DNA from: a virus
Length of the DNA: 51,730 nucleotides
Strand: one strand, 5' to 3'
Virus record (IMG/VR): IMGVR_UViG_3300017727_001923
Location: 97,406-149,135 of that record
Shown here piece by piece: positions 14,643-36,866 of this stretch; the first letter of the stretch is position 1, and every line of letters starts with the position of its first letter. Under the pieces are notes generated by a model that had not been told where the DNA came from, ran no database searches, and saw only the letters and a program-made list of their open reading frames with translations. A program made the position numbers and the translations under genes.

Positions 14643-17600
14643 ATGCCAAAGACATTTACATCTAACGTATTCCAATCAACCTATAAGGATGATTTTAAGG
14701 ACAGTGATAATTATCATCGTGTCCTTTTTAACAGTGGTAGAGCGGTTCAAGCACGTGAACTTACTCAACTACAAACAATCATTCAAGAGGAAATCGGGAG
14801 ATTTGGTCGGAACGTCTTTAAAGACGGTGCTGCCGTAAATCCAGGCGGCCCTCACGTCAATAGTGATTATGAATTTATTAAACTAGATACTTCAGTAAGA
14901 ACTTTACCAGACGATACTTCTGTTTTAATAGGACTTGAGTTCACACATGCCGCAACAAGTACTGCTGCAAGAGTTCTAGAGGTCGTGACTGCTACAGGTT
15001 CAGACCCAGCAACACTATATGTTCAATACACAAACACCTCTGGTGGTGACGTTGGAACAAACCCAGTTCGTATGCAATCGGGTGTAGATATCACAAGTGG
15101 TAGTTTTACATTTACAACACAATCAACAAACACTATTGCAAACCCTGCTGTAGGACGTGGTTGTCAAGTATCAAATGCTGCGGGTGATTTCTTTACTCGT
15201 GGTCATTTTGTATTCGCTAAACCTCAATCACTTATTATATCAAAATATACAAGATATCCTACTAAAGTTATTGGTTTTAAAGTAACAGAAGATATTATTA
15301 CTGTTGCGGATACTAATGAATTGTATGATAATCAGGGTGCAAATCCTAACCTATCTTCGCCTGGCGCTGATAGATACCGAATTAAACTTACTTTAACAAC
15401 AAAAGATGACGTTGCCTCAGATGAAAACTTTGTCTTCTATTGTGATATTGTTGATGGTAATGTAGTTGACCAAGTAACTGGTGCAGATAATTACAATGCA
15501 CCTAATACACTTGTTGCACAAAGAACAAAAGAAGAGAGTGGAGATTATATTGCAAAAGACTTCACTGTTGATTTCAGTGACTCAGCGACTAATCTAGTCG
15601 CATCTGTATCAGATGGTGTTGCATATGTAAACGGACATCGTGGTGCAACAGAAAAACCTACACCTATTACTATTCCAAAACCAAGAACTGATGTAACTTT
15701 AGAGAATGAAGTAACTGGTATTAGTTATGGTCAATTTGTCTTATGTAGTGAACTAAAGGGCGACATTGGTTCATTGTTTAAGACAGTTAATCTATCAACA
15801 TCTACTACTAATCCTGCTGCAAGTATTACAGGTACAGCAAGAGTTCGTTTTGTAGAAAAGAGTGGTGTTAATTTTAAAGTCTATCTATTTGATATCAAGA
15901 TGAATAGTGGACAGTCTTTCCGAAATATTAAAACACTTGGTACTAGTACAACTAATAGAGCAATCCCTGTTTTTGAATCTAGTAAAGCAGTGATTAAGGA
16001 TGCAACTAAAGTAAACTTAGTATATCCTCTTCCTAATCCAAGACCAAGAGCAATTACAGACGTTGACTTTGAAGTTCAAAGAGTTTCTGCTACGATTTCT
16101 AATTCTTCAAGTTCATTCTCTATGCCTAACTTGACTGTGACTGGTGAAACCTATACCAATACAAGTGATTGGATTGTTATTAATGCATCTACTGGTGCTG
16201 TACAAACTGGTGCAACTTTTGGTACTTCTGGTACTACCTCTATGACTGTTAGTAATGTAGCATCTGCTAATGCTATCGTATATCATAAAATTAACAAAGC
16301 ATCCCCAGTAGTTAGACCAAAGACATTAACCGATGCAACTGCAACCGCAACATTATCAACCGATTCTTTAACTGGTGCAAAATATCTAGATTTAGGTAAA
16401 ACTGATGTCTATAGTGTACAATCAATTAGACTAACTAATTCTGGTGGTACAGATATCTCTCATCAATTTACTGTTGATGATGGTCAACGAGCAGGATTCT
16501 ATGGTAATGGTCGATTAGTATTAAATGGTGGAGAGACTCAAAACGGAACAGTTTACTGTGCATTTAAACATTTTGTTCATGGTAATGGAGATTACTTCTC
16601 AGTTAACTCTTACGAAGGTAAGGTTGATTATGACAAGATACCCGCATTCAAAGTCGGGCCTAGAACATCCGTAAACTTACGTGACGTAATTGATTTCCGT
16701 TCTGCGGTAAACTCTAGTAATGTATTTACTACTTCATCACAAAATGAAATCCCTGCTAATGGTGATATCTTCCAAGGTGACGTAACATATTATGTCCCTC
16801 GTTCAGATAAAATCGTAGTTACCGAACAAGGTGAAGTTAAAAATATTTTAGGTGAAGCAGGATTTTCTTCTCAGATTCCCGCAACCCCATCAAATACTCT
16901 AGGTCTTTTTGAACTAGAACATAACGCATATGGTCTAAATGACTCTGACGTAGTTGTAACTCCTCTCAAAGCGAAAGGATTTACAATGAAAGATATCTCT
17001 GAACTAGAGAATAGAATTGATAAGTTAGAAGAAGTAACAACTTTAAGTATGTTAGAACTTGATACATCTTCACTCTTAGTTCTTGATTCTGCTGGAAACT
17101 CTAGAATGAAATCAGGTTTCTTCGTAGATAACTTTGCAAATAGAAGTTTCTCAGACGCAGAAAACTCAGAATATCGTGCTGCTATTGACCCAACTAAAGG
17201 TTTACTTTCATGTGCAACCTTTGAAGATAACGTTGGACTTGTATATGACAGTGCCGCATCATCAAACACTATTCTTAAAGGTGATACGATATTCCTTAAT
17301 TATACACATGTTGAATCAATAAGTCAACCAGTAATTTCTGGAACAGAGAACGTTAACCCATTCGCAGTTATTACTGGAGAAGGAAATCTTACTCTATCTC
17401 CAGCTTCAGATGAATGGTTTCAAACAGCATACAAACCCGCAAATGTAATTAACAAAACTGCGGAAGAACAACTAGGTGACCTAAACGAAGGTAATCTTGC
17501 AGTAGGTACTGCACAACAACGTGGATTCGCTGGCGGTAGTGGTGCATGGATGTGGTCTGGAGCGCCTTTTATTCCATTAATAGGATTCGGTGAATTCGGT

Positions 17601-19841: not shown

Positions 19842-20047
19842 TGAAATCGTATGTTGCTATAGAAGGAAATTCATCTTTAGCAAGAGACCCAAATTCGGGG
19901 ACAATTGTTAATATAAATAAAGATGAGATAAGTAAAGCTCGTTTATTAAAAACGAAAAGAAAAGAACAAGAAAGAGAGTTTGATGATTTAAAGAATGAAG
20001 TAAGTGAAGTTAAAGAACTCCTTAACAAACTAATAGAGAAACTGTAA
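19841..20047 (+). CDS. Small coiled-coil protein
   Basis: 68 aa, translationally coupled on both sides; LARDPNSGTIVN plus C-terminal heptads. Confidence 0.7.
   Translation: MKSYVAIEGNSSLARDPNSGTIVNINKDEISKARLLKTKRKEQEREFDDLKNEVSEVKELLNKLIEKL
19912..19919 (+). promoter_or_regulatory. Possible internal late promoter TATAAATA
   Basis: Exact consensus inside the 68-aa ORF, upstream of the fibre island. Confidence 0.45.
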
Positions 20048-21552
20048 TGGCTACCGCAAAACCGACAATTACAACGATTAATGATACGTTCACTACGTTG
20101 GTTACTAATACCAACACTGTCTCATTAGACTTAGGTGCAACTGGTCGATTAAACACGAATCAGGACTCTAGTGCCGTTGCAGCTATTAATGAACTGGAAC
20201 TAGGTATTCGTGGTACTTCGAATGACTTAGTTGCAACTGATTTATCACAAGCAGGAATTACTGCAAATAACGTTGTGTCTGCACTAGTAGAACACGATGT
20301 AGATATGCATGGTTCTGGAGGTGGTAATGCCGCTTCTGATTTAACAACAAATGCAAATGATATTGTATCTGGTGTTAATGAACTAGAAGTTGCTATTCGT
20401 GGAACTGATAATGGACTAGTCGCTAATATCCTATCAACCACTGCAACTAACTTAGTTACTGGTATTGGTGAACTTGACTCTGATATTGGTGCAAGACCAC
20501 ACACAAATCTTACAACTGGTGCAAAGAATCTTACTGCTGCTATCAACGAACTTGAAGCAGACATATTTAACGCAGAGGGTGGAACTAAAAGAACTCTTGC
20601 GTCCCTTGGTACAACCGATAAAACTGGTATCGTTGATGCAATCAATGAACTAGAAACTGCAATCCGTGGTACTACAGCAAATTACACTATTAGTACTACT
20701 AGTAACGATTTAGTAGGTGCGGTAAACGAACTTGATACATTGCAAGGTAATGTTTCAATGGGAACAAGTGCATCTACTGTTACAGGTGCAATTAAAGAAC
20801 ATGATGATGAGTTAGGTACAATTACTGCTCTTGCAATGGGTACAACTGCATCTACAGTATCTACTGCGATTGCAGAACTAGAAGTAGAGATTGATACACT
20901 TAATACAAAAGTCGAACCCGCCCAAGCATTAACAACTACTGCAACTACATTATCAGATGCAGTAAATGAACTTGATGCACTACAGGGTGACAGTGCAATG
21001 GGTACAACTGCAACTACCGTTACAGGTGCGATTGCAGAACTAGAAACAGAGATTGACACACTCAATACCTTTGTTGAACCTACACAATCATTGACTACTA
21101 CTGCAACAACTGTTGCGGATGCAATCAACGAACACGATGCAGAGATTGGTGCTGCCTCTCTCAACACATCTGCTACCACATTACGTGGTGCAATCAATGA
21201 ACTACATACAGAGGTTGGTGCTGCAATTGGGGCAACTCATAACACAACCACTGGTAATATTGGTTCATCATTAAACTTACTAGATAGTGCAGTTGGTAAC
21301 CTTGATGGTTTAAATGCTACCGATGTTCCTGCTGCGGGTCATAATAACTTAGTATCCGCTATCAACGAAGTTGCTGCAAGAGTAACTGGACTTGATGCTT
21401 CTGGTGCTGAGGTTGATTCTAGAATCGGGTCGTTATCAAATCTACACGCTGCTTTCACAGGAACAGAAGATGACAGTATAGTGAATGCTATTAATGCATT
21501 AAGGGGTGATATTCCACTTATATTCGATGAGAATGGAACACAACTTAATTAA
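20047..21552 (+). CDS. Segmented coiled-coil fibre (fibritin/whisker-like by position and architecture)
   Basis: About 15 repeats of L/M-x-T-T-A-T/S-x-L/V-x-x-A-I-N-E-L; lies between the baseplate genes and gp13, like wac. Confidence 0.6.
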   Translation: MATAKPTITTINDTFTTLVTNTNTVSLDLGATGRLNTNQDSSAVAAINELELGIRGTSNDLVATDLSQAGITANNVVSALVEHDVDMHGSGGGNAASDLTTNANDIVSGVNELEVAIRGTDNGLVANILSTTATNLVTGIGELDSDIGARPHTNLTTGAKNLTAAINELEADIFNAEGGTKRTLASLGTTDKTGIVDAINELETAIRGTTANYTISTTSNDLVGAVNELDTLQGNVSMGTSASTVTGAIKEHDDELGTITALAMGTTASTVSTAIAELEVEIDTLNTKVEPAQALTTTATTLSDAVNELDALQGDSAMGTTATTVTGAIAELETEIDTLNTFVEPTQSLTTTATTVADAINEHDAEIGAASLNTSATTLRGAINELHTEVGAAIGATHNTTTGNIGSSLNLLDSAVGNLDGLNATDVPAAGHNNLVSAINEVAARVTGLDASGAEVDSRIGSLSNLHAAFTGTEDDSIVNAINALRGDIPLIFDENGTQLN

Positions 21553-21569: not shown

Positions 21570-24182
21570 ATGACTGTTCCATTAAAGTTAAAAGACAGTG
21601 CTGCACCCACTGAGTTGCAAGTATTCTCTTCTGCGGAGGAGAACTACTTAGCATATCTAGCGGGTCAACATATGGCGGGGTATGCCAATGGTACGCCTGG
21701 CACTTTAAGCACTACCAACACAGGAAACCTTGTTGGAACATTAACTGATACATCATTTGATTCTGCTGTAGGAACTGGTGGTGGCGGGTCTCTATTAACA
21801 ATTGGTACAACCACAACTTCCCTTTATCAAGCAGCGGGAAGTATTTCTGACGCAACAATAAGAAGTTCTAATAATTTCCGTCTTCCTGTAATGCAGAGAG
21901 ACAGTGATGGTCAAAGAGTTATCCGTGAAATGGATGACTCAGATATGGATTCTTTAATAACCAGAATTAGAAGTCGTGTTTTTACATCTGACTATCCAAG
22001 TACATATAGACTAGGGTCTTCAACTCCGACAGGAAGTTGGGGTGCTGTTATATCAAATTTAGCGACAGATACTAGAACTGATGGAACTTCTATAGGTTAT
22101 AATATTTACAGAAAAACTAATGATACTTCACCCACTAAGGTATTACCGTTTTCTATAAAACGTGCTAGTGGGTCTACAGGAACGTATCAAGGTCTTCAGT
22201 TGATGACCGATGACCAAGTTAGACAGACCTTTGCAGATTATCTTAGAAATAAAATTGCCTCAGAAGTATCATCTAATGGAATTGGTTCTTATAAAATATA
22301 TCCTTCTGGTACAACACCAACGGGTCAAGGTTTGCCTGGCACATGGGCTGCAAAAGGAACTGCTACAGATACTAGACAGGTTGTTAGTGACGTAAACTAT
22401 ACAAGGGCAAGGTCATCAACCTATTCAAAACTTAGAACGTCAACATATAGTGCTGATTATTCAAGAAATCGTTCGTCTACTTTTTTAAGTCACAGTGACG
22501 CTACTAGGACAAGTAGTTACACAACAACTCGTACTACCGATAGAACAGACCACTATGCCGCATCTGGTTTTCTAGGTAACTATACTGGTGACTTTACTGG
22601 TAATACAGAAAGAGTCTATTCAAGAAATAGAAGTAGTGCTTTAAACTACCAAGGTAATTATACTCAAAACTTTACTGCTGCTTATTCTAGATTAAGCGTA
22701 TTCACAGGAAACTATGCGGATGCCGAAGGTAATAATTTTATACGACAAAGTAATGTAGTTAATAATTATACTGGTAATTATGCTAATGCTTTTGCTGGAA
22801 ACTATGGTAGAATAAACGTATACTCTGGTAATTATACTGGTGAATACACAAGAAATAGTACAAGAGATAGTCAATCAATTGATGATGCCAACTACGCCAG
22901 AGACTTTACAGGTAACTATGCCAGAAACTTTGATAGAAGTAGAGAATCTAACTATACTAGAAATAGTACTGATGCAGTCTTGACAAACTTCCAGAGAACA
23001 TCTACCAGAGATTCTAACAGAGATTCAAATAGAACTATAACTGGTGACTTTACTGGTGACTTTACTGGTGACTACACAAGAAATTATACTGGTGATTTCC
23101 AAAGAACTTCTATTCAAACGACAAATTATACTGCCGTTTACCAAAGAGGTAGACATAAGCAAGGTAATGTTCAATACTATACTGGTGATTTCATAGGACA
23201 AAGATATTATACTAGACAAAGACAAAACTATGCATATGGTTGGACTGGTTATTATTATTCAAGGTCTAATTCTACTACGGATGATTACTGGAGAGTAATC
23301 TATGGTGGGCCGAGTCATGTTAATGGTGACCAATATGGTATTTCTGTTTTTGCTAAAATATATGCCTCCAGTGCGGATAATACAGGGTCAAGCCAGCAAC
23401 TTGGGATGACTAATGCAGCTACTACTGGGTTAGATGACCCATCAAGTGTGTTACCTTTTAGTCAATATCTAACAATAACTTCATACAATTATACTACTGG
23501 AATACCTAGCTATGAAGATTTTGTTGGAGGTACATGGGCAAATTTCATTACTAAAATGAAACTAGTAACGGGTATGATAATTGGTAATTATGAATATGAG
23601 AAGGGTAGTTTTCAGGGTCGATATCATAGTAATTTATATAATGATTACCCCGATGCTGATTTTCCATATTGGGATTTTTACTCTGTAAGACGTAGGTCTG
23701 CGGCATACTTTACTGGTAACTTTGCAGCATCATTTATTGGTGAATATCAAAATACCTTTGCACGTGCATTCACAAGAAACAGTACTGCAAACTCAACGAC
23801 TGAGTATGCGGGTGATTATGCGGGAGATTTTGCGGGAAATTTCTTGGGTGATTATGTTGGTGACTTTACTGGTGATTACACAAGATTTTTCAGTGGTCAA
23901 TATTCTAGAAACTATGTTAGTACAAGAAGTTCTAATTTTAGTGGAGGAGACTCATATTCTCGAACCTTTACTGGTAATTTCATAGGAAACTTTACTAGAA
24001 CATTTACTGCTAATTATATTGGTAATTATACTAGAAACTATGCGGGTCAATATACAGGTAATTATTTAAGAAACTTTCAAGGAAACTTTGCTCGAACCTT
24101 TACTGGTAACTATGCGGGTCAAACCATAGGTAGTGGTAATCAAAATATTGAGACTTATACTCTCTACGTAAGAACAGCATAA
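21570..24182 (+). CDS. Tetrapeptide-repeat fibre protein A (870 aa) with central non-repeat domain
   Basis: About 270-aa N-domain paralogous to the next gene; [YF]x[GR][ND] repeats flank a ~160-aa aromatic-rich insert; C-terminus TYTLYVRTA. Confidence 0.75.
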   Translation: MTVPLKLKDSAAPTELQVFSSAEENYLAYLAGQHMAGYANGTPGTLSTTNTGNLVGTLTDTSFDSAVGTGGGGSLLTIGTTTTSLYQAAGSISDATIRSSNNFRLPVMQRDSDGQRVIREMDDSDMDSLITRIRSRVFTSDYPSTYRLGSSTPTGSWGAVISNLATDTRTDGTSIGYNIYRKTNDTSPTKVLPFSIKRASGSTGTYQGLQLMTDDQVRQTFADYLRNKIASEVSSNGIGSYKIYPSGTTPTGQGLPGTWAAKGTATDTRQVVSDVNYTRARSSTYSKLRTSTYSADYSRNRSSTFLSHSDATRTSSYTTTRTTDRTDHYAASGFLGNYTGDFTGNTERVYSRNRSSALNYQGNYTQNFTAAYSRLSVFTGNYADAEGNNFIRQSNVVNNYTGNYANAFAGNYGRINVYSGNYTGEYTRNSTRDSQSIDDANYARDFTGNYARNFDRSRESNYTRNSTDAVLTNFQRTSTRDSNRDSNRTITGDFTGDFTGDYTRNYTGDFQRTSIQTTNYTAVYQRGRHKQGNVQYYTGDFIGQRYYTRQRQNYAYGWTGYYYSRSNSTTDDYWRVIYGGPSHVNGDQYGISVFAKIYASSADNTGSSQQLGMTNAATTGLDDPSSVLPFSQYLTITSYNYTTGIPSYEDFVGGTWANFITKMKLVTGMIIGNYEYEKGSFQGRYHSNLYNDYPDADFPYWDFYSVRRRSAAYFTGNFAASFIGEYQNTFARAFTRNSTANSTTEYAGDYAGDFAGNFLGDYVGDFTGDYTRFFSGQYSRNYVSTRSSNFSGGDSYSRTFTGNFIGNFTRTFTANYIGNYTRNYAGQYTGNYLRNFQGNFARTFTGNYAGQTIGSGNQNIETYTLYVRTA

Positions 24183-24192: not shown

Positions 24193-27100
24193 ATGGGAAC
24201 TACCACACTAAAACTTGAAGGTACAAATGGTGACCTCAAGGAAATAACAACCACAGAGGAGAATTACCTTGCGTATCAAGCAGGGTTGCATCTTTCTGCG
24301 TTGGATTCTAGTGCAGTAGGAACACTTACCGCATCCTCAACTAATAACGCTTTAATCGGAACATATACCGATACTACTTTTGACGATGCAGTTGGAACAC
24401 ACGGATTTGCTAGTGGTAATGTTCCAGTAATACAAACAACAACATCATTATATCAAAGAGAAGGTATCACTAACTTTGCGGGTGACTCCGATGCATTTAG
24501 ATATCCTATTGAGTTTAATGATAATAGTGGAACAAGTGAGATTCATGAACTTGATTCCTCAGAAGTAGATACACTCACAGACCGTTTAACAAGTCGTATT
24601 GCAACATCTGAATATCCAGGCACATACCGATTAGGTTCGTCTTCGCCAGGCGGAACATACTCAACATATAAAGCTGGAGTATTCTCTGATAGATTACAAA
24701 CAGGTTCTTCAGGAACAGTATATAACCTTTATGTGAAGTCTAGTATGTCTTCACCGACTGTAGTAAGACCTGTCTCAATTAAACGTGCATCTGGATTGAC
24801 TGGTTCTTTCCAAGGTCTGAAAGAAATGACCGATGCAGAAATTAAATATAGTTTTGGGTCAAGAGTACAATCTAGAATATCAAGTGGTTCTAATGGAGTT
24901 GGAACATATCAATTAAGAAGTAATGTTCAAGGCGCTCCAACAGATACAGGAACTTGGGCGACTCGTGGTACTGCAACGGATACTCGTTTTAACCTAGTAA
25001 ACACTGATTATAGTGCAAACTATCAAAGGGTTAGTACAACAGATTCTACTAGAAACCGTACCGCAGATTTCTCTAGAAGTGTTGATTACGTAGGTAATTA
25101 CTCAAGGAATTTCACAGGTAATTTTCTAGGTGAATATACTGGAGACTTTACAGGTAACTTTGTTGGAGACTTTGTTGGGGATTATTCCAGAAGTTTTATT
25201 GGAGATTACGTAGGTAATTACTCCAGAGACTTTGAAGGTAACTATACTGGTGATTACTCTAGAAACTTCCTTGGTAATTATATCGGAAACTATGCTCGTG
25301 CATATTCTGCTGTATATTCAAGAACAAGAGTCACTACATTTACTGGTGATTTCACTGGTAACTATGTCGGAAACTATTCAAGAAACTATAGTGCTGCATA
25401 TACTAGAAACAGTACTGCGGAATTCATAGGAGATTTCACTGGTAATTATACAGGTAATTATACAAGAAATTATTCTGCAAACTATCAGAGAACACGTGTT
25501 ACTAATTTCCTTGGAGATTTTACTGGTGACTATACAGGAAACTACGCAAGAAACTTTGAAGCAGATTATACCAGAGATAGAGTCACAACATTTACAGGTA
25601 ATTTTTTAGGAGATTACACAGGAAACTACGCTAGAAACTTTGAAGCAGATTATCAGAGAACACGTGTTACTAACTCAGCGGGAACATACACTGGTAACTT
25701 TGAAGGAAACTATACAGGTAACTATGCCAGAAACTTTAGTGCTGATTATCAAAGAACTCGTTCAACTGATTACACACAAGTTTTTACTGGTAACTTTGAA
25801 GGAAACTATACTGGTAACTATGCTCGTAACTACACTGGAAACTACGCTAGAAACTTTAGTGCTGATTATCAAAGAACACGTATTACTGATTACGTAGGAG
25901 ATTATGCAGGCGACTATACAGGAAATTTCTTAGGTGATTATACAGGTAACTATGCACGTAATTATAGTGCGAACTATCAAAGAACTCGTGTTACTACATA
26001 CACTGGAGATTTTGCGGGAGACTATGCGGGTGACTTCGTAGGTAACTATGCTAGAAACTTCCTTGGTAACTATGCTAGAAATTATCATGGTGACTTTGAG
26101 GGTAACTACACAGGAAACTATGCTCGTAATTATCTTGGTAACTATGCTCGTAACTACACAGGTAACTTCGTAGGTGACTATTCAAGAACTCGTGCTACTG
26201 CATACGCAAGAACACGTGCTACTGCATATTCAAGAACTCGTGCTACTAACTATGCGGGTGGTGGTAAAGGTGGTAACGCTTATAACTACACTGGTAACTT
26301 TGTAGGTAACTACACTGGTAACTTCGCTGGTAACTACACAGGTAACTTTGTAGGTAACTACGGAAGAACTCGTGCTACTAACTATGCAAGAGCGTTTACT
26401 GCAAACTATGCCAGAAACTTTAGTGCCGCATATACCAGAGACCGTAATACAAACTATGCTAGAAACTTTACTGCAAACTATGCTAGAAACTATACAAGAA
26501 CATCTACCAGAGATTCTAATAGAACTCGTATTACTGATTACGTAGGTAATTTCTTAGGTGACTATACTGGTAACTATGCTAGAAACTTTAGTGCTGATTA
26601 TCAAAGAACATCTACCAGAGATTCTAATAGAACTCGTATCACTACATACACGGGTGACTTCTTAGGTAATTACACTGGTAACTATGCAAGAAATTATAGT
26701 GCAGACTACGCTAGAAACTTTAGTGCAGACTATGCTAGAACACGTGTAACAGATTACACAGGTAACTTTGTCGGTGATTTCTTAGGAGATTACACTGGTA
26801 ACTATGCAAGAAACTATCAGGCAGACTATGCTAGAACTCGTGTAACAGATTACGTTGGTGATTATGTTGGTGACTTCTTAGGTAATTACGTTGGTAACTA
26901 TGCAAGAAACTATAGTGCTGATTACCAGAGAACTCGTGTAACTGATTATGCGGGGAACTTTGTAGGTAATTACACTGGTAACTATGCTAGAAACTATCAA
27001 GCAGACTATACTAGAAATAGTACAGATACTTTTGTAGGTGATTTCTTAGGAGATTACACTGGTAACTATGCTAGAGAATTTACTGCGGATTATTTAAGAA

Positions 27101-27600
27101 ATAGTACTGCAACATTCTTGGGTGATTTTACGGGTGATTATACAGGAGACTATGCAAGAGCATTTAGTGCAGACTATACAAGAAATAGTGTTGCTGATTT
27201 TGCGGGTAATTTCTTAGGTGAATATACAGGAAACTATAATAGAAGTTTTACTGCTGATTACCAAAGAACTAGGGTGTCTACTTATAGTGCCGCCTATAGT
27301 AGAACAAGAACATCTCTATATAGTGCAAACTATCAGAGAACAAGAAGTTCTGCATACACAAGGAATTCTACAGTAGATTCTACAAGAAACTCAACTGCGG
27401 TATTTACTAGAACTTGTGTTGTTGTACGTTCAAGTGCATACAGTAGAACTAGAACAAGTGTGACAACATTTACTGGTGATTATACTGGTAACTTTGTTGC
27501 AGAATTTACAGGTGACTATGTGGGTAACTATGTCGGAACAACTATTGACTCAGGAAGTTCAGTAATTAAGACATACACTCTTTATCAGAGAACCGCATAA
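24193..27600 (+). CDS. Tetrapeptide-repeat fibre protein B (1135 aa), mirror-symmetric repeat region
   Basis: Shares EENYLAY.AG.H, TDT.FD.AVGT, YP.TYRLGSS.P, SIKRASG.TG..QGL..MTD, GTWA..GTATDTR and C-terminal TYTLYxRTA with protein A. Confidence 0.8.
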   Translation: MGTTTLKLEGTNGDLKEITTTEENYLAYQAGLHLSALDSSAVGTLTASSTNNALIGTYTDTTFDDAVGTHGFASGNVPVIQTTTSLYQREGITNFAGDSDAFRYPIEFNDNSGTSEIHELDSSEVDTLTDRLTSRIATSEYPGTYRLGSSSPGGTYSTYKAGVFSDRLQTGSSGTVYNLYVKSSMSSPTVVRPVSIKRASGLTGSFQGLKEMTDAEIKYSFGSRVQSRISSGSNGVGTYQLRSNVQGAPTDTGTWATRGTATDTRFNLVNTDYSANYQRVSTTDSTRNRTADFSRSVDYVGNYSRNFTGNFLGEYTGDFTGNFVGDFVGDYSRSFIGDYVGNYSRDFEGNYTGDYSRNFLGNYIGNYARAYSAVYSRTRVTTFTGDFTGNYVGNYSRNYSAAYTRNSTAEFIGDFTGNYTGNYTRNYSANYQRTRVTNFLGDFTGDYTGNYARNFEADYTRDRVTTFTGNFLGDYTGNYARNFEADYQRTRVTNSAGTYTGNFEGNYTGNYARNFSADYQRTRSTDYTQVFTGNFEGNYTGNYARNYTGNYARNFSADYQRTRITDYVGDYAGDYTGNFLGDYTGNYARNYSANYQRTRVTTYTGDFAGDYAGDFVGNYARNFLGNYARNYHGDFEGNYTGNYARNYLGNYARNYTGNFVGDYSRTRATAYARTRATAYSRTRATNYAGGGKGGNAYNYTGNFVGNYTGNFAGNYTGNFVGNYGRTRATNYARAFTANYARNFSAAYTRDRNTNYARNFTANYARNYTRTSTRDSNRTRITDYVGNFLGDYTGNYARNFSADYQRTSTRDSNRTRITTYTGDFLGNYTGNYARNYSADYARNFSADYARTRVTDYTGNFVGDFLGDYTGNYARNYQADYARTRVTDYVGDYVGDFLGNYVGNYARNYSADYQRTRVTDYAGNFVGNYTGNYARNYQADYTRNSTDTFVGDFLGDYTGNYAREFTADYLRNSTATFLGDFTGDYTGDYARAFSADYTRNSVADFAGNFLGEYTGNYNRSFTADYQRTRVSTYSAAYSRTRTSLYSANYQRTRSSAYTRNSTVDSTRNSTAVFTRTCVVVRSSAYSRTRTSVTTFTGDYTGNFVAEFTGDYVGNYVGTTIDSGSSVIKTYTLYQRTA
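24997..27540 (+). repeat. Coding 12-nt-period repeat array (208 units, nearly all tetrapeptides) around a Gly-rich turn at 26251-26286
   Basis: Recurrent tacactggtaac, tatgctagaaac, tttagtgctgat and tatcaaagaact units, all in frame. Confidence 0.9.
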
Positions 27601-27639
27601 TAAACTTATATATAAACGTGAAGTGTTAGGAGATTAAAC

Positions 27640-28092
27640 ATGGCAAGAGTATGGTTAGATAATGCATTCTGGGAAACCCCCAAAAAACAAATGTTGAATG
27701 CAATCAGCGAAGAAAGTGTTGATAATAAAGAGATTCGTCAAGTTCATAAACTGAACAGACACAATAATAATGGAACTGAGAACGCTCTATTCTTAGAGGC
27801 AGTCGCTTACATTACAGAAGAAAAGATTGATGCTGCAAGTAAGAAACGTCTTGAAAAGAAACAAGCAGAAGCAGAACTTGAGAAACAAAAACAATTAGAA
27901 CATGAACGTGCAAAGAAGTTAGAAAAACTTTTTGAATATAAACTAGAGACTTTTGAGATTGCTGAAATCAAAGATTCTAAAAACAGACTATTAAAATCAA
28001 AGTTAAGACGTTCTAGGTCTATCCCAGAAGTAAACTTATATGCTATGATGATTGTGAAGGAATCTATAGAGAATGAAATCGACTCAAAGTAA
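27640..28092 (+). CDS. Hypothetical protein with central coiled coil (possible chaperone)
   Basis: AGGAG RBS; charged helical segment KKRLEKKQAEAELEKQKQLEHERAKKLEK. Confidence 0.65.
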   Translation: MARVWLDNAFWETPKKQMLNAISEESVDNKEIRQVHKLNRHNNNGTENALFLEAVAYITEEKIDAASKKRLEKKQAEAELEKQKQLEHERAKKLEKLFEYKLETFEIAEIKDSKNRLLKSKLRRSRSIPEVNLYAMMIVKESIENEIDSK

Positions 28093-28822
28093 AGGATTTG
28101 TAATTGTAGCGTCTAAGAATCACAACTTCTATATTTACGCTTGCAATTTAATGGAATCAATCAAAGACTTCTATCCAGAAGCACTCATTACTCTGGTTAC
28201 CGAAGAAAGATTCTTGGATGACCGTGCAGATGAAGCTGACCAAATAATCTTTTGTACCGACCACTATCGTGCAAAACTATGGGGTATGGCACAAACTCCG
28301 TATGATATTACCATGTATGTTGATGCAGACATGGACTGTGAACACGAAGATATAATAACTGTATGGGATGAGATGCAAGATTATGATATGGTCTTCCATG
28401 AACTTACCAAAGAACGTGAAAAGTTTTATGCAATTCGTGAATTTAAATATGAAGATAAAAGGGAGAAGTTCCGTCTATGCGGAGGAGTTTGTCTCTATAG
28501 AAGTGAGAATCCATTAGTCCGTGAATTTATGGATGATTGGTTTGAAATGTATAATCTCCAACACACTAATGAGTGGCAACCAAAAGGGTTTGACCACGAC
28601 CAATTTCAAAAGGATTTAAAACACTTTGACCAAACAACTCTCTGGTACATGACAGAGAAGATGGAAAAATATAAAGATTTAAAAATAGGAATCTTCTCAG
28701 ATGATATTAGATGGAATTATTTCACTCAATATGCATATGAAGGATTGAAATCAATAGAAGGAAAACCACCTATATTAAGACATTACTCAGGGTCTTTGAA
28801 GAAGGATAAACTTATAGTATGA
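28073..28822 (+). CDS. GT-A fold glycosyltransferase (GT8-like nucleotide-diphospho-sugar transferase)
   Basis: KGFVIVAS, SIKDFYP, RAKL....TPYDITMYVDAD (DxD), GGVCLY, DQTTL, RWNY, ILRHY. Confidence 0.8.
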   Translation: MKSTQSKGFVIVASKNHNFYIYACNLMESIKDFYPEALITLVTEERFLDDRADEADQIIFCTDHYRAKLWGMAQTPYDITMYVDADMDCEHEDIITVWDEMQDYDMVFHELTKEREKFYAIREFKYEDKREKFRLCGGVCLYRSENPLVREFMDDWFEMYNLQHTNEWQPKGFDHDQFQKDLKHFDQTTLWYMTEKMEKYKDLKIGIFSDDIRWNYFTQYAYEGLKSIEGKPPILRHYSGSLKKDKLIV

Positions 28823-29487
28823 TAGACATTCCGATTAATAATAAAGATGTGAAACAAGCATTAGATAATTTCTTATGGTATTATAACAATAGAGAAGTAT
28901 TATCTAAAGAGGTTCATCTCCATGGTGAAGCAAAGGACAGAAGTCACTGGGTTGGTACAAAACACAGAGATGAAATCATTGCTCAAGACACAAACCATGA
29001 AGGATTTCCAGATGCAGTTCATGGATACTCTTTAAAATCGGATAGAATTCAGTTTGTTGAAAGAAATAATCCAAATAATGCATCTTATATATCAAAATTT
29101 GGTGAACTCAATACTGAACTTTGTACAATATTATCCACACGTAATAACGCATTAGCACAACTTTATCCCCCAAATGGACATATTTCGTGGCATAATAATG
29201 CAAATGCATCTGCATATAATATTATTTTCTCTTGGTCAGAGACGGGAGAAGGATGTTTTAAATATGTTGATGGTCATACAGGTGACGAAGTTGTCATGCA
29301 AGATGTAAAAGGATGGCAGTGTAAAGCAGGATATTTTGGTGCATATGGTGAACCTTGGTATAAAAGGGTGTATCATGCAGCCGAGACTGACTGTTGGCGA
29401 TTGACCGTATCTTACATATTTGACCGAACTGATATGTCTATGGGTCTACAAGACGATATAATAGAAGAAATAATGTCTGATTTTTGA
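28819..29487 (+). CDS. 2OG-Fe(II) oxygenase-like (double-stranded beta-helix) protein
   Basis: LYPPNGHISWHNN...IIFSWS..GEG.F....VYHAA....RLTVSY fits the Y-P..G..WH ... H ... R layout; the HxD position is HxN. Confidence 0.6.
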   Translation: MIDIPINNKDVKQALDNFLWYYNNREVLSKEVHLHGEAKDRSHWVGTKHRDEIIAQDTNHEGFPDAVHGYSLKSDRIQFVERNNPNNASYISKFGELNTELCTILSTRNNALAQLYPPNGHISWHNNANASAYNIIFSWSETGEGCFKYVDGHTGDEVVMQDVKGWQCKAGYFGAYGEPWYKRVYHAAETDCWRLTVSYIFDRTDMSMGLQDDIIEEIMSDF

Positions 29488-29508: not shown

Positions 29509-29516
29509 TATAAATA
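29509..29516 (+). promoter_or_regulatory. Late promoter TATAAATA
   Basis: Exact consensus, intergenic before 29559. Confidence 0.75.
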
Positions 29517-29558: not shown

Positions 29559-29927
29559 ATGTTGACACCAAACTACGAAGATATTACAATTACACAAGGT
29601 GCAGATGTAGCGATAGAAATACATCTCATCAATGACAGCGACAGTGCATATGACCTTACCAATAGGTCTGTAGCATCTAAAATGAAAAGAAATTATACCG
29701 ATTCTGCGGGTGACCCAGATACGGTAACATTTAATGCGTCTATAATTTCCCCAGCAACTTCGGGGATTGTAAATCTCTCACTAACTAATACTCAAACAGA
29801 TGCGTTGAAGACTCGTGGACGTTATGTCTATGATGTAGAAATATCTTATGTCGATAGTGATTCCAACACAATAATCCAAAGAGTCCTCGAAGGTCAAGCA
29901 GAAGTAAGTCCTTCGGTCACTAAATAA
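29559..29927 (+). CDS. Small Ig/BppU-N-like virion structural (fibre adaptor) protein
   Basis: ITITQGAD, YDLT, G.VNLSLT..QT..L..GRYVYDVEI, RVLEG...VSPSVT. Confidence 0.65.
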   Translation: MLTPNYEDITITQGADVAIEIHLINDSDSAYDLTNRSVASKMKRNYTDSAGDPDTVTFNASIISPATSGIVNLSLTNTQTDALKTRGRYVYDVEISYVDSDSNTIIQRVLEGQAEVSPSVTK

Positions 29928-29938: not shown

Positions 29939-32900
29939 ATGACTGATAAGATATACATCAAAAAGATAGTCGTTGGGACTCCAATTAAGCGAGTAACATC
30001 TGGTGCGTTTTCTATTGAAAATTTATCAGGGGTAGACGTAAGTGCGACAGAATCCGATGGTTCAATCCTTGCATGGAAATCAAGTGCAAGTAAATTCGTC
30101 ACAACAAATTTAAAAGGTTCTACTAATATATCCGCTAACTACGATAGTGGTCTGGAACAATATACTTTTAGTTTTACTGGAGACACAATTACGGGTAGTC
30201 TTATACCCGACTCCAATGAGGCATACGACCTTGGTAGTGCAACTAAAAAATGGAAAGATTTACATCTAAGTGGAAATACTATTCAACTTGGAACTATATC
30301 ACTAAGAGATAGTAATGGTTCTTTCGTTGTTGTTGACAGTGGTGGTAGTAAAGAAACTCTTGGGGTTTCTCTTTCTTCAAATAACACTGGTGTTTTAAAC
30401 TTTGATAGTGGTTTAGGTCAGTTTACATTTAACGATTCTGACCTTGCAAGAACAAACATCAATGAGACATTCCATAGTGGTATAACTGTACTTAATGGTG
30501 CAACTATTGACAGTGCAACCATTACTAATCTTGCAAACACAAATTTAACTGGAAGTCAAGCGACTTTCGATAGTGCAAACATTGGTACTCTACGAGTAAC
30601 TGGTAATACTGTCCTTGATGGTAATCTGACCATTACTGGTACAGAGACTACCGTAAACACCGAAACAATTAACCTTGCAGACAATACGATTGTCCTAAAC
30701 TCTAATGCAACTGGTACACCTAGTGAAGATGCGGGTATTGAGATTGAACGTGGTTCTTCTGCAAACAAATCATTCTTATGGGATGAAGGTAGTGAGTACT
30801 GGACACTAGGTTCAGAGACTCTTCAAACTACAGGTAAAATTTTATACGGTAACGTCTACAGTTCAGAAGGTGACTTACCAAATGCGGGAACATATCATGG
30901 TATGTTCGCACACGTACATGGAACAGGTAAAGGTTACTTTGCACATGGTGGTGCATGGCACAAACTATTAGACGAAACATCGTCAACAACTGCAAACTTG
31001 ACCGAAGGGTCAAACCTCTATTATACTACTGCACGTTCCGATAGTGACTTTGATATTCGACTCGCAACTAAAAATACTGCGAATCTTTCTGAAGGGTCAA
31101 ACCTCTATTATACAACTACTCGTGCAGATTCAGACTTTGATGTCAGACTTGCTACCAAAACAACAAGTAACGTAGCAGAAGGCACAAATCTCTATTACAC
31201 GTCTACAAGAGTTGATTCAGATATACTGAATTCATCTATTGACGCACAAAGAGCTGCTCCAGTATACCACAAAATTGTAGTTACTGTAGAAAGTGGTTAT
31301 TACTTAATAGACGGAACTTCACAAGCAAATATGGTGTTGTCACCTAATGTTGTGTACAGATTCGACCAATCACATAGTAGTAATAGTTCACACCCATTAG
31401 TATTCTCTACTACATCCGATGGAACACATGGTGGTGGTTCAGAATTATCTTCAAACTTTAAAGTATATAATAAAGTAGGTAATGCTGGCTCTACAGGTGC
31501 ATATGTTGATTTAGCAGTAGAACAAGATGCGGGTAAACTTTATTACTACTGTCAGAGTCATGGTGGAATGGGTGGTGTTGCAAATACAAGTCCTCTTTCA
31601 TCTATCAGTGTTACAGACGCTGGCGGGGATGGTTCACTTTCATATAATAGTTCAACTGGTGTAATAACTTACACAGGGCCAAGTGCAACCGAAGTCAGAG
31701 CGCATTTAACAGCAAACAAAGGTTTGTCTGTATCCAACGGTGAGTTTAATATAGATTCCGCTAACGTTAGAGGCATGTTCTCTGCGGGTGGTGACCTATC
31801 TTATAATAGTGGAACAGGTCAGTTCTCATTTGACGTAGAACAAGTCTATACCAAAACAAACTTTGATTCCGATTTAGGTGCTGCATTAGATGGTGGAGCG
31901 GGTATTACATATGACTCCGCACAAGACACTATCTCTATTACAGCAACTGGAGTAACTGCGGGAACATACGGTAACGCATCTCAGATTCCAGTATTTTCAG
32001 TTAATGCACAAGGTCAATTAGACAGTGCGGGTACAGTTGCAGTTGCGGGTGTATCTACATTCTCATTCGATTCCGCAAATGGTAATATTACAATTGGAAC
32101 TGCGGATGGAGGAAGTTTCCTCACAACTATTACTCTTGACCCATATACTACTACAAATCTAACAGAAGGTACAAGAAAATATTATACTACTGCAAGAGCG
32201 GATAGTGATTTTGATATTAGACTTGCAACCAAAACTACTCAGAATGTAGCAGAACATAGTTCTAATCTTTATTACACAACTGCAAGATGGGACGCACGTC
32301 TTGCTCAAAAAGATTTAGATAATATTGCAGAAGGTTCAACAAATTTATATTATACCTCTGCTCGTGCAGATAGTGACGCAAAGAACTCAGTATCAGTAAC
32401 AGATGCGGGAGGCGATGGTTCACTATCCTACAACTCAACAAATGGTGTCTTTACATATACAGGGCCGAGTTCAAGTGACGTTCGAGCTCACTTTAGTGCT
32501 GCGGGTGATTTAACTTATGACTCTTCTACTGGTAGATTCTCTATTGATGTGGAGAATGTTTATACAAAGTCTAACTTTGATTCAGACCTTGGTGATGCAC
32601 TAGTTGGTGGAACAGGAATCACATATGATTCTTCTTCCGATACAATCAATCTTACAAACACTGGTGTTACTGCTGCAACATACGGTTCTTCAACTTCAGT
32701 TCCCCAGATTGCAATCAATGCTCAAGGTCAAGTTACCTCTGCAAGTAATGTAACTATTGCGGGTGTTACTGGTGTAGATTTTGATAGTTCAAACGCAACT
32801 ATTACAATACAAACAACTGGTGGAAACTTTACGGATGTCATATCACTCGACCCATTCACTACTGCAAACTTATCAGAAAATACTAACCTCTACTATACCG

Positions 32901-35188
32901 ATGCAAGAGCAAGAGCATCCAACTCTGTCACAGATGCGGGTGGAGACGGTTCACTGGCATATAACAGTACTACAGGTGTTATCACTTATACTGGGCCTAG
33001 TGCTGCTGAAGTAAGAGCGCATTTAACCGCAAACAAAGGACTCTCCGTTTCTAATGGTGAGTTTAACATAGATTCTGCAAATGTCAAGGGAATGTTTAGT
33101 GCATCTGACGCTGGCGGAGATGGAAGTTTTGCATACAGTAATGGTGTCTTTACATATACAGGGCCGAGTGCGACAGAAGTAAGAGCGCACTTAACCGCAA
33201 ATAAAGGACTTTCTGTATCCAACGGTGTATTTGACATTGACTCTGCTAATGTAAAAGCAATGTTCAGTGGTTCAAGTGGTGTAAACTACTCTAATGGTGC
33301 AATCACTGCCGACACAAATGAAATCAGAGGATTCTTTACTGCAAATAAAGGTCTTTCAGTTTCAAGTGGTGAGTTTAATATTGACTCTGCCAATGTTCGT
33401 GGAATGTTCTCAGGTTCAACAGGAGTAACCTATAATTCAGGTACAGGTGCAATTGCAATCGGACAGGCAGTTTCAACATCCGATGATGTAACCTTCCAAG
33501 ACGTAACAGTCAGTGGTAACCTAACAATTACAGGTGACACAGTTCAGACTGGTAGTGTTGTATCCGACAATAACTTTACAGGTCTAACCAACTCTAATAC
33601 AGGAAACAGTCAAGACTTTGGTTTCTATGGTAAGTATGTAGAAGGTGGAACAACCAAATATGGTGGTGTATTCTACGATGCATCTACAGATAATACATTC
33701 AGATTATTTACTGATACACAAACACTTCCGACTTCAACAGTAAATACTGGTGCTACAGGTTATTCAAGTGCAAACTTGATTGTTAAAGATATCAATGCCG
33801 AAGACTTAGTTCTATCTGGTAATCTGACAGTCAATGGTGCTACTGTAACCAACAGTGCAACCAACACAACAATCGAAGATGCATTGATTGAACTTGGTTC
33901 TGGTAATACAGGTTCAAACTCAAATGACCTTGGTCTTGTTCTTGAAAGAGGAACAACTGGTGACAATGTGTTCATGGGTTGGGATGAGAGTATAGACAGA
34001 GTAAGATTCGCAACTACAACTGCTACAGGTTCATCAACAGGTGACTTATCACTTACAAATGCAAACGTTCAAGCAGCAAGATTTTATGGTGACTTAACTG
34101 GTGCCGTAACAGGAACAGTTTCAGATATATCTAATCATACAACTGCAAACTTAACTGAAAACACTAATCTTTATCATACCACTGCACGTGCAAGAGGTGC
34201 TATATCGGTAACCGATGCGGGTGGAGATGGAAGTGCATCCTACAATAGTACTACAGGTGTAATTACCTATACAGGGCCGAGTGCATCTGAGGTAAGAGCG
34301 CATCTGACTGCGAACAAGGGTCTAAGTGTATCCTCTGGTGAGTTCAATATAGACTCTGCCAATGTTAGAGGAATGTTTAGTGCTTCAGGTGACCTAAGTT
34401 ACAATAGTGGTACAGGACAATTTAGTTTCTCTGATTCTGCACAACATACTTCTGCACAAATACGTGCAATGTTCTCAGGTTCAACTGGTATTACTTTAAA
34501 TGGTACTACTGGTGCAATATCAACAACCGATGGAGATATCGTTCATGATAATCTATCAGGATTTGTTGCAAACGAACACATAGACCATACTTCAGTTACC
34601 TTAACTGCGGGAACAGGTTTAACTGGTGGTGGCACAATCGCTGCTTCTAGAACTTTCAATGTGGTTGGTGGTAAGGGTATTATTGCAAATGCGAATGATA
34701 TCCAAGTTGACTCCGCAAACATCAAAGGTATGTTTAGTGGTGGTACAGGTATCACATATAGTAATGGTGCAATCTCTACTACAGATGGAGACATTGTCCA
34801 CGATAACTTGAGTGGATTCGTAGCGAATGAACACATAGACCACAGTGGTGTAACAATGACTGCGGGTACTGGTCTTACTGGTGGTGGTACTATTGCTGCT
34901 ACTAGAACCTTCAATGTTGTGGGTGGTAAAGGTATTACCGCAAACGCAAACGATATTCAGATTGACTCTGCAAACGTTAAAGGAATGTTTAGTGCAAGTG
35001 GAGACCTTGGATATTCGAATGGTGTATTCTCATTTAGTGAGACATATTCAACTGCCGCAGAATTGATGACCGCACTAAAAACAGTTGATACAAACTCAAG
35101 TGGTTTAAATGCAGACTTACTAGACGGTCAACAAGGTACTCATTACAGAATAAACGTTTACAATAACGCAGGCACGTTGTTAAACTAA
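29939..35188 (+). CDS. Long repetitive tail/collar fibre protein (1749 aa) with cupredoxin-like domain
   Basis: YDLGSATKKWKDLHLS, GNLTITG..TTVN, repeats TTANLxEGxNLYYTxAR and SVTDAGGDGSLSYNSxTGVITYTGPS, HPLVF...YYYCQSHGGMG, NADLLDGQQG. Confidence 0.75.
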   Translation: MTDKIYIKKIVVGTPIKRVTSGAFSIENLSGVDVSATESDGSILAWKSSASKFVTTNLKGSTNISANYDSGLEQYTFSFTGDTITGSLIPDSNEAYDLGSATKKWKDLHLSGNTIQLGTISLRDSNGSFVVVDSGGSKETLGVSLSSNNTGVLNFDSGLGQFTFNDSDLARTNINETFHSGITVLNGATIDSATITNLANTNLTGSQATFDSANIGTLRVTGNTVLDGNLTITGTETTVNTETINLADNTIVLNSNATGTPSEDAGIEIERGSSANKSFLWDEGSEYWTLGSETLQTTGKILYGNVYSSEGDLPNAGTYHGMFAHVHGTGKGYFAHGGAWHKLLDETSSTTANLTEGSNLYYTTARSDSDFDIRLATKNTANLSEGSNLYYTTTRADSDFDVRLATKTTSNVAEGTNLYYTSTRVDSDILNSSIDAQRAAPVYHKIVVTVESGYYLIDGTSQANMVLSPNVVYRFDQSHSSNSSHPLVFSTTSDGTHGGGSELSSNFKVYNKVGNAGSTGAYVDLAVEQDAGKLYYYCQSHGGMGGVANTSPLSSISVTDAGGDGSLSYNSSTGVITYTGPSATEVRAHLTANKGLSVSNGEFNIDSANVRGMFSAGGDLSYNSGTGQFSFDVEQVYTKTNFDSDLGAALDGGAGITYDSAQDTISITATGVTAGTYGNASQIPVFSVNAQGQLDSAGTVAVAGVSTFSFDSANGNITIGTADGGSFLTTITLDPYTTTNLTEGTRKYYTTARADSDFDIRLATKTTQNVAEHSSNLYYTTARWDARLAQKDLDNIAEGSTNLYYTSARADSDAKNSVSVTDAGGDGSLSYNSTNGVFTYTGPSSSDVRAHFSAAGDLTYDSSTGRFSIDVENVYTKSNFDSDLGDALVGGTGITYDSSSDTINLTNTGVTAATYGSSTSVPQIAINAQGQVTSASNVTIAGVTGVDFDSSNATITIQTTGGNFTDVISLDPFTTANLSENTNLYYTDARARASNSVTDAGGDGSLAYNSTTGVITYTGPSAAEVRAHLTANKGLSVSNGEFNIDSANVKGMFSASDAGGDGSFAYSNGVFTYTGPSATEVRAHLTANKGLSVSNGVFDIDSANVKAMFSGSSGVNYSNGAITADTNEIRGFFTANKGLSVSSGEFNIDSANVRGMFSGSTGVTYNSGTGAIAIGQAVSTSDDVTFQDVTVSGNLTITGDTVQTGSVVSDNNFTGLTNSNTGNSQDFGFYGKYVEGGTTKYGGVFYDASTDNTFRLFTDTQTLPTSTVNTGATGYSSANLIVKDINAEDLVLSGNLTVNGATVTNSATNTTIEDALIELGSGNTGSNSNDLGLVLERGTTGDNVFMGWDESIDRVRFATTTATGSSTGDLSLTNANVQAARFYGDLTGAVTGTVSDISNHTTANLTENTNLYHTTARARGAISVTDAGGDGSASYNSTTGVITYTGPSASEVRAHLTANKGLSVSSGEFNIDSANVRGMFSASGDLSYNSGTGQFSFSDSAQHTSAQIRAMFSGSTGITLNGTTGAISTTDGDIVHDNLSGFVANEHIDHTSVTLTAGTGLTGGGTIAASRTFNVVGGKGIIANANDIQVDSANIKGMFSGGTGITYSNGAISTTDGDIVHDNLSGFVANEHIDHSGVTMTAGTGLTGGGTIAATRTFNVVGGKGITANANDIQIDSANVKGMFSASGDLGYSNGVFSFSETYSTAAELMTALKTVDTNSSGLNADLLDGQQGTHYRINVYNNAGTLLN

Positions 35189-35996: not shown

Positions 35997-36866
35997 ATGG
36001 CAACGAACCCTTATTTTAAACAAGGTGTTAAGTCTGAACAATCAGTATATGAGGACATCATAATTGAAGCCCTCAAATTCTATGGACAGGACGTATATTA
36101 CCTTCCACGAGAAATCATCAACAAAGATAAAGTCTTTCTTGATGACGTACCGTCACGTTTTGGTAATGCATACAAGATTGAGATGTATATTGAGAACACC
36201 GAAGCGTTTGAAGGCGAGGGTGACCTATTTACTAAATTCGGTATCGAACTAAGAGACCAAGCAAACTTTGTTGTTTCAAGAAAAAGATGGAAGACTTTGG
36301 TTGGTTCTCGTTTAGAATCATTAAACTTCCGTCCTCGTGAAGGGGACTTAATCTATTTGACACTATCTCAATCTATATTTGAGATTCGTAGGGTAGAGAC
36401 CGAAACTCCATTCTATCAACTAGCAAATCTTCCTACATTCCGTATGCAATGTGAGTTGTTCGAGTATAATGATGAGGATATGGATACTGGGTTTGCTACA
36501 ATTGATAATATAGAAGCAGAAGCAGCATATCAAGTTGAATTAACACTGGACTCTGCGGCAGGATTCTCTATTGGAGAAACAGTTACTCAGGCATACGATA
36601 CGTATAACTTAACAGGTGAAGTTACTAGATGGAGTGACTCAGATGGTATCTTACGACTTGCACATGTTGGTGCATCCGATGGGAAGTTCCATCAATTTGG
36701 AACAGGGGTACAAGTAACTGGTGGTACGTCTCTTGCGAAAGCAACACCGACATTTGTTGATGAGTTGCAGGCAATACAAGCAGATGCACAAAATAGAATC
36801 TTTGATGACTTCGAAGCAGACTTCCTTGACTTCTCAGAGAGTAATCCATTCGGAGATATATCATAA
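35997..36866 (+). CDS. gp14: Neck protein gp14
   Basis: EQ..YEDIIIEALKFYGQDVYYLPR, TKFGIELRD, RPREGDLIY, PFYQL, CELFEY, DFSESNPFG. Confidence 0.9.
   Translation: MATNPYFKQGVKSEQSVYEDIIIEALKFYGQDVYYLPREIINKDKVFLDDVPSRFGNAYKIEMYIENTEAFEGEGDLFTKFGIELRDQANFVVSRKRWKTLVGSRLESLNFRPREGDLIYLTLSQSIFEIRRVETETPFYQLANLPTFRMQCELFEYNDEDMDTGFATIDNIEAEAAYQVELTLDSAAGFSIGETVTQAYDTYNLTGEVTRWSDSDGILRLAHVGASDGKFHQFGTGVQVTGGTSLAKATPTFVDELQAIQADAQNRIFDDFEADFLDFSESNPFGDIS

Follow-up and report, generated by a model that had tools for sequence, protein, structure and literature searches.

A three-gene unit tied to hairpin fibre genes in a marine T4-like phage is a candidate fibre-maturation module

Exploring the right-hand third of a complete virus genome with terminal repeats (149,135 bp; IMG/VR record IMGVR_UViG_3300017727_001923, positions 97,406 to 149,135; hereafter the window, 51,730 nt), we found three co-oriented open reading frames (ORFs) on the plus strand that directly follow two genes of hairpin fibre proteins and stay with them in related phages. 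ORF1 (27640..28092, +) encodes a 150-aa orphan protein, ORF2 (28073..28822, +) a 249-aa protein that is by its modelled fold a retaining GT-A glycosyltransferase of the glycogenin/GT8 type, and ORF3 (28819..29487, +) a 222-aa double-stranded beta-helix protein of the prolyl-hydroxylase type; ORF1 and ORF2 overlap by 20 nt, ORF2 and ORF3 by 4 nt. The source virus is a marine T4-like myophage. Its portal protein shares 69% identity with that of Phage C48C1 (Kyanoviridae); with the portals of Methylophilales phage Melnitz, Pelagibacter phages Mosig and HTVC008M and cyanophage S-RIM2 the figure is ~50-53%. We tentatively read ORF1-3 as a module for fibre maturation that goes with the hairpin genes; which proteins it acts on, in what order its reactions run and what chemistry ORF3 performs are inferences on our part. 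A first-pass annotation, made from the letters of this DNA, had placed three overlapping, co-oriented genes between hairpin protein B and the adaptor and long-fibre genes, and our gene calls agree with it to the nucleotide.

Near-length homologues at E <= 0.001 were found for ORF2 (272) and ORF3 (317) and ORF1 is kept in every related locus, indicating that all three are real genes. Analysis of IMG/VR loci anchored on ORF2 revealed the order hairpin, ORF1, ORF2, ORF3, LtfC-like gene in all 80 of them as well as in C48C1, with gaps at contig ends alone. Anchoring on the hairpin N-domain recovered the trio in 39 of 67 loci, including ones with ORF2 and ORF3 identities as low as 26-33%; in each of the other 28 the contig breaks off within the hairpin ORF, hence there are zero informative negatives among the 67. 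The GenBank phages (50,697 records) gave the same picture from another side, as the hairpin N-domain, ORF1, ORF2 and ORF3 each match C48C1 alone and have no detectable homologue in the cultured pelagimyophages and cyanophages of this set. Wherever a locus is informative, ORF1 stands behind the last hairpin gene, and this includes a divergent phage contig (L245) in which the transferase has moved beside the LtfC-like gene and ORF1 and ORF3 still stand directly behind the hairpin gene. The rearranged segment (L245:5543-10951) reads transferase, LtfC-like gene, 72-aa ORF, 594-aa fibre, 408-aa hairpin-like protein, ORF1-like and ORF3-like genes. That the trio and the two hairpin genes form one system, as the first-pass annotation had supposed, is supported by this co-occurrence across viral metagenomes in all informative loci and by the shared C48C1-only pattern: all five genes behave as a single unit.

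The T4-type late promoter motif TATAAATA has exact plus-strand matches between 19.7 and 30.1 kb of the window at 19912 and 29509 alone. The first copy (19912..19919, +) is the likely start of a unit composed of a 501-aa Thr-rich coiled-coil fibre-like protein (20047..21552, +; the first gene of the hairpin unit, kept in synteny past the VrlC/DUF4815 gene in related loci), the 870-aa hairpin fibre protein A (21570..24182, +; a conserved N-domain followed by four-residue repeats rich in Tyr, Asn, Thr and Arg), the 1135-aa hairpin fibre protein B (24193..27600, +), which lies immediately 5' of the trio and is its proposed substrate, and ORF1-3, with ORF1 starting 39 nt past the hairpin B stop. 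The second copy (29509..29516, +) would start the next unit, i.e. an LtfC/p132-like beta-sandwich adaptor (29559..29927, +; PF23926, E 0.003; phrog_1084, E 6e-20; phrog_3304, E 5.5e-15) and a long fibre. Of 60 distinct loci, 59 have the motif in the gap from ORF3 to the LtfC-like gene and none has it in the 200 nt that precede ORF1, so the trio is predicted to close the hairpin operon, ending the transcription unit of the hairpin genes rather than forming part of the long-fibre one. Scans for terminators and sigma-70 promoters around the trio stayed at chance level. Over the whole window the motif has 11 matches on both strands vs 5.4 expected; the nine plus-strand copies (985, 8899, 12214, 19912, 29509, 39593, 43884, 49665 and 50011) all precede structural genes, either inside an intergenic gap or at its border, and together read as a putative late-operon map of the structural region.

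The AF2 model of ORF2 (predicted local distance difference test, pLDDT, 92.2; predicted template modelling score, pTM, 0.89) has a GT-A (single Rossmann-like) fold, which Foldseek matched to LgtC, glycogenin and the catalytic domain of UGGT at E ~1e-8 (2e-8). Alignment with VIA-align gave glycogenin (3t7n) as the closest structure (Z 16.8; root-mean-square deviation, rmsd, 3.6 Å over 197 residues), followed by GlyE (Z 15.3), the Skp1 alpha-galactosyltransferase (Z 14.7) and LgtC (Z 14.3); the top folds are all retaining GT-A enzymes and the best three work on protein-linked acceptors. This bears out the glycosyltransferase call made in the first-pass annotation. D84-A-D86, which sits after beta-strand 79-84, is invariant in a 36-sequence set and, together with D186-Q187 and H237, in 67 ORF2 cassette copies down to 26% identity. 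These residues we take to be the DxD, DQxxLN and C-terminal His (HxxGxxK) of GT8 enzymes, i.e. the positions that bind Mn2+ and the UDP-sugar. ORF2 shares the GT-A fold and DxD, and putatively the DQxxL motif and C-terminal His, with glycogenin, the Skp1 alpha-galactosyltransferase Gat1 (6mw5), GlyE of Streptococcus pneumoniae (5gvw) and LgtC (1g9r), but its sequence is just 12-16% identical to its structural matches and its lineage is found in phages alone. It had no Pfam hit at E <= 0.1, was missed by PF01501 (Glyco_transf_8) in a genome-wide search at E <= 10, had no PHROG match, and its sequence profile matched no solved PDB chain.

No cellular homologue of ORF2 was found in the genomes of 185,579 species by a pattern-based scan, from which distant relatives can escape; the four hits were all contigs of metagenome-assembled genomes (MAGs) that bear the same phage fibre module. 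These contigs (L242-L245; JAAXIF010000028, JAYQEC010000001, CBFHZN010000007 and PBDY01000018), assigned to MAGs of Sphingobacteriales, Porticoccaceae, Microbacteriaceae and Gammaproteobacteria, contain the module of VrlC, hairpin, ORF1-3, LtfC-like and neck genes and are in all likelihood phage sequence that was mis-binned as bacterial. Furthermore, the divergence of ORF2 tracks that of core structural genes (56-92% identity), not that of the hypervariable fibre parts. Given the predicted late co-transcription, the strict two-way co-occurrence, the conservation of ORF2 at the pace of core genes and the lack of cellular relatives in the scan, we favour a phage-internal substrate, and among such substrates the hairpin proteins are the obvious candidates.

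The sole fused form found in the ORF2 family is P0392 (551 aa, metagenomic), in which a 300-residue N-terminal domain with no Pfam match and no similarity to ORF1 precedes the transferase domain. Elsewhere in the genome, outside the window, two genes (G000:C1:80968-81354 and 71527-71865) have weak, sub-cut-off Glyco_transf_8 matches (E 1e-5 and 8e-4); hhalign of the ORF2 profile against the two GT8-like genes of the genome put DAD and RHYS in register, without significance. An NAD-dependent sugar epimerase/dehydratase gene and a UDP-glucose/GDP-mannose dehydrogenase gene (L086:4839-5777 and 5747-6724; G000:18838-20723) come shortly after the DNA polymerase gene, which stands two ORFs before them, and could supply an unusual nucleotide sugar (UDP-glucuronic acid, UDP-GlcA, or UDP-galacturonic acid, UDP-GalA) to the phage transferases.

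The AF2 model of ORF3 (pLDDT 93.9) is a double-stranded beta-helix that aligned best with PHD2 (3oui; Z 11.3, rmsd 3.2 Å over 147 residues), Pseudomonas PPHD (4j25; Z 10.7), Dictyostelium PhyA (6t8m; Z 9.9) and PBCV-1 vCPH (5c5t; Z 9.2). A search independent of Foldseek returned among its top 50 solved chains 2-oxoglutarate (2OG) oxygenases or uncharacterised homologues thereof and nothing else; protein prolyl hydroxylases led (Z 10.3-9.2), with ALKBH6 at 8.6 and NgTET1 at 8.2, so that nucleic-acid oxygenases stand 1-2 Z units under the top fold hits, a small gap. The site of ORF3 reads Y116...H125-N126-N127...H186...R194-x-T196, with Y116 on strand 109-116 and R194 and T196 on strand 194-201. 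The Y...H...H...R-x-T series occupies the strands on which PHD-type enzymes carry Y...HxD...H...R, with PHD2-like spacing. In 132 full-length representatives of the family, many of them 23-30% identical to ORF3, W-H-x-N, Y116 and W166 are invariant and D162, H186 and R194 nearly so; the Asn at position 127 is found in 37/37 members of one set, in 132/132 diverse representatives and in 71/71 cassette copies. Y116 (132/132), R194 (127/132) and T/S196 (123/132) are the putative 2OG-binding residues. The first-pass description of ORF3 as 2OG-oxygenase-like holds for the fold but not for the motif, where HxD reads HxN.

ORF3 itself had no Pfam or PHROG match and none was consistent across the 37 family members scanned; PF13640 matched nothing in the genome at E <= 10, and the ORF3 profile found no match among PDB sequences. 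A BFVD search returned one uncharacterised family member and then generic viral 2OG oxygenases, and the ESM Atlas returned unnamed viral clusters alone. A profile search of 1.84 billion representatives yielded 520 clusters, 262 of them at E <= 1e-10, which puts the size of the family, for which there is no Pfam model, at no fewer than 520 clusters at 50% identity; members sampled by the ESM Atlas are 94-100% viral and the family looks almost wholly viral. ORF3 thus shares the double-stranded beta-helix and Y...H...H...R-x-T with the PHD/P4H prolyl hydroxylases (human PHD2; PPHD, 4j25/4iw3; the Dictyostelium Skp1 hydroxylase PhyA, 6t8m; vCPH, 5c5t) but differs from them in the Asn that replaces Asp, in the lack of a Pfam 2OG model, in its almost wholly viral distribution and in the absence of a proline-rich or collagen-like candidate substrate.

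ORF1 is preceded by an AGGAG ribosome-binding site (27629-27633). Alignment of 27 sequences showed that its W-x-DNAFWE N-terminus is conserved and its basic amphipathic C-terminal half highly so, with a K/E-rich stretch at the centre; W11, L97, F98, K101, F105, E106, K111, R116, R123 and E130 are invariant. No match of ORF1 was found in Pfam, PHROG, PDB sequences (profile search) or the ESM Atlas, and the first three of these gave no match to known chaperone families; Pfam and PHROG scans of its 27 relatives returned nothing usable. The first-pass term "coiled-coil protein" may fit the K/E-rich centre and the amphipathic C-terminal half; we propose that ORF1 is a helical orphan protein serving as helper or adaptor.

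If ORF1-3 mature the hairpin fibres, one transcript from the 19912 promoter would late in infection yield the Thr-rich fibre, hairpins A and B, ORF1, ORF2 and ORF3, the last three being translationally coupled via their overlaps. In the cytoplasm, ORF2 would glycosylate the hairpin proteins with a nucleotide sugar bound through Mn2+ on D84/D86/H237. Candidate acceptors would be Tyr, Thr/Ser or Asn side chains of the repeat ribbon or a site within the conserved N-domain; hairpin B consists of 11.4% Tyr, 9.8% Asn and 14.2% Thr and has 38 N-x-S/T triplets. ORF3 would bind 2OG (Y116, R194, T196) and a metal at its 2-His(+Asn) site and oxidise or prepare a hairpin residue, and ORF1 would act as adaptor or chaperone.

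Several findings weigh against this reading, the first of them being the chemistry of ORF3. ORF3 is devoid of the carboxylate of the 2-His-1-carboxylate triad, as the Asp of HxD is Asn127. Because the carboxylate ligand is systematically Asn, ORF3 is not a canonical enzyme of this type and may not be an oxygenase. AspH and halogenases likewise do without a carboxylate ligand, and by this analogy ORF3 may still act like a canonical 2OG enzyme or may equally do other chemistry. Classical hydroxylation targets are also scarce: hairpin B contains just 0.6% Pro and 0.8% Lys, and neither collagen-like G-X-Y repeats nor Pro/Lys-rich fibre proteins were found when sought in the genome. A collagen-type Pro/Lys target was rejected on these grounds; therefore, the candidates left are prolines of the N-domain or Tyr, Asn, Thr and Arg of the ribbon. 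In the hairpin B N-domain (window 24193-24990), P152 and P249 are 97% and 95% conserved among 115 sequences, and the repeat ribbon is devoid of proline; should ORF3 act on proline in the first place, no other residues than these two are plausible sites of prolyl hydroxylation. The hydroxylate-then-glycosylate scheme that the first-pass annotation had inferred for virion proteins is not borne out, given the altered triad, the missing collagen-like repeats and the paucity of Pro and Lys.

The ORF3 family, moreover, is not fibre-specific. The same genome encodes a 230-aa paralogue (G000:C1:24382-24975, = L086:10383-11075, outside the window), 33% identical to ORF3, which carries a WHTNWN motif, overlaps the end of ThyX and lies in a module with PolB, UvsX and DnaB. 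ThyX is upstream of this paralogue in 74/80 IMG/VR loci and adjacent to it in 68/80, and the WHTNWN-type motif is kept in 79/80. In C48C1 (OQ984149.1) there are three HxN paralogues, all annotated as hypothetical: one past the major head and gp3-like genes before UvsY (18267-18920), one between a DnaB-like helicase and a NifU-like gene (40130-40804) and one in the fibre cassette (152322-153029), i.e. this phage has a third family copy after its head genes. Fibre-linked (WHNNAN) and ThyX-linked (WHTNWN) copies form distinct subfamilies that are ~33% identical, and the ThyX-linked paralogue may be a nucleotide- or replisome-directed HxN member. The earlier statement that these genes lie away from DNA-metabolism genes is therefore correct for the ORF3 copy of the trio and fails for the family, and the claim of virion proteins rather than DNA as substrates is weakened at the family level by the conserved ThyX-adjacent paralogue. 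Two further points concern the linkage: the late-operon argument rests on a promoter motif, and the conserved adjacency may partly reflect common descent in one phage clade.

The glycosyltransferase raises an objection of its own, as GT8 enzymes often act on lipopolysaccharide (LPS) and the transferases of the same host recognition cluster have been argued to modify the O-chain (PMC7029224). ORF2 together with ORF3 might alter LPS, capsule or another surface glycan of the host, perhaps the hairpin receptor itself, so as to block superinfection or to keep progeny from sticking to debris, the enzymes travelling with their cognate receptor-binding proteins; we hold such envelope modification to be unlikely, although it is to be taken seriously. 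Receptor masking fits the co-occurrence with a receptor-binding protein almost as well as fibre maturation does, LgtC, a strong structural match of ORF2, is a lipooligosaccharide (LOS) galactosyltransferase, and the genome encodes a UDP-sugar epimerase, a UDP-glucose dehydrogenase and two more weak GT8-like genes. However, the trio shares a predicted late-promoter unit with the fibre genes and is not placed among these other sugar genes, and the pattern-based scan met ORF2 homologues in mis-binned phage contigs alone, not in cellular genomes or LPS clusters. The conservation of ORF2 at the level of core genes while fibre tips vary also suits a phage-internal substrate better than host-variable glycans; in addition, the nearest folds of ORF3 are protein hydroxylases and no membrane segment is evident in ORF1, ORF2 or ORF3.

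Genes directly 3' of fibre genes usually encode chaperones or adaptors, as do T4 gp38, lambda Tfa and P2 G, and the trio occupies this very place. It is conceivable, if improbable, that all three proteins are assembly factors that catalyse little or nothing on the fibre and are required for the folding or attachment of its long two-stranded ribbons: ORF1 would be a Tfa/gp38/gp57A-like chaperone and ORF3 a binding protein, a pseudo-enzyme or an enzyme acting on a small molecule. The loss of the canonical Asp in ORF3, the absence of enzyme-like features in ORF1 and the retention of ORF1 and ORF3 behind the hairpin gene when the transferase moves (L245) are consistent with this. On the other hand, the full set of catalytic-type residues, DxD, DQ and His in ORF2 and Y/H/N/H/R/T in ORF3, is kept (near-)invariant over deep divergence, which argues for selected active sites rather than mere scaffolds.

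A bolder joint reading keeps catalysis and changes its nature: the HxN family would represent a new class of 2OG-binding enzymes, almost all of them viral, whose 2-His(+Asn) metal site would carry out a chemistry other than ordinary hydroxylation, on the analogy of halogenases and AspH, and whose fibre subfamily would with ORF1 and ORF2 decorate the Tyr/Asn-rich two-stranded hairpin ribbons. This we regard as speculative and rather unlikely, and the same holds for its corollary that the decorated "glyco-ribbon" would be a post-translationally built receptor-binding organelle unprecedented in tailed phages.

Least probable is hypermodification of DNA or nucleotides, in which ORF3 would oxidise a base to which ORF2 would add a sugar, on the model of phage TET-plus-glycosyltransferase systems or of base J: although oxygenase-glycosyltransferase pairs that hypermodify phage DNA are known (PMC8256090; bioRxiv 10.1101/2023.12.21.572611), an ORF3 paralogue adjoins ThyX in the replication module and nucleic-acid oxygenases follow the best ORF3 folds closely, the ORF3 copy of the trio lies in the late fibre operon ~100 kb from the replication genes, the trio is linked to hairpin genes and not to methyltransferase or nucleotide genes, the best folds of ORF2 are not DNA glycosyltransferases, and the fibre- and ThyX-linked copies belong to separate subfamilies. 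A paper on glycosylated 5-hydroxycytosine made no mention of 2OG enzymes.

Returning to fibre maturation, transferases in the host recognition cluster, phage virion glycosylation and viral hydroxylase-transferase pairs are already known; the fixed unit of three genes that goes with the hairpin fibres and the HxN family seem not to have been described before. Freeman and colleagues are said to have proposed in 2023 that mycobacteriophage-encoded glycosyltransferases modify the phages' own capsid and tail-tube proteins. We know of no oxygenase-like partner in such actinobacteriophage systems; the trio differs from them also in being tied to one fibre family in marine T4-like phages. In Mimivirus, L230 and R699 act on Lys of viral collagen, with demonstrated activities (PMC5802723, PMC9546862, PMC9614988), and the likeness lies in a viral protein of 2OG-oxygenase fold and a GT-A transferase that are associated with fibre-type virion proteins. 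Unlike the trio, which has an altered triad, no collagen and a bacterial host, the Mimivirus hydroxylase has a canonical triad and collagen as its substrate.

In pelagimyophages and cyanomyophages, the host recognition cluster between VrlC and gp14 carries fibres and GT8-type transferases, the latter read as modifiers of the host O-chain (PMC7029224). The trio locus has the same genomic position and content: it is bordered upstream by the VrlC/DUF4815 gene (14643-19841) and downstream by the gene of neck protein gp14 (35997-36866), and the 1749-aa long fibre (29939-35188) lies 3' of the LtfC-like adaptor with the neck genes beyond. No three-gene unit, tie to hairpin fibres or HxN protein was described for the published cluster.

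T4-like phages of the sea that are related to pelagimyophages are abundant, and for the most part their host-recognition regions lack annotation. Should the trio indeed modify the hairpin fibres, phages of Gram-negative bacteria would have their first example of an enzyme module dedicated to the maturation of tail fibres, and glycosyltransferases of host recognition clusters would be read as decorating the virion rather than as remodelling host LPS. Whatever the substrate, ORF3 stands for a large family without a Pfam model in which an oxygenase fold invariably has Asn in place of Asp at its metal site and whose paralogues are fixed at two or three genomic positions, making it a concrete target for enzymology.

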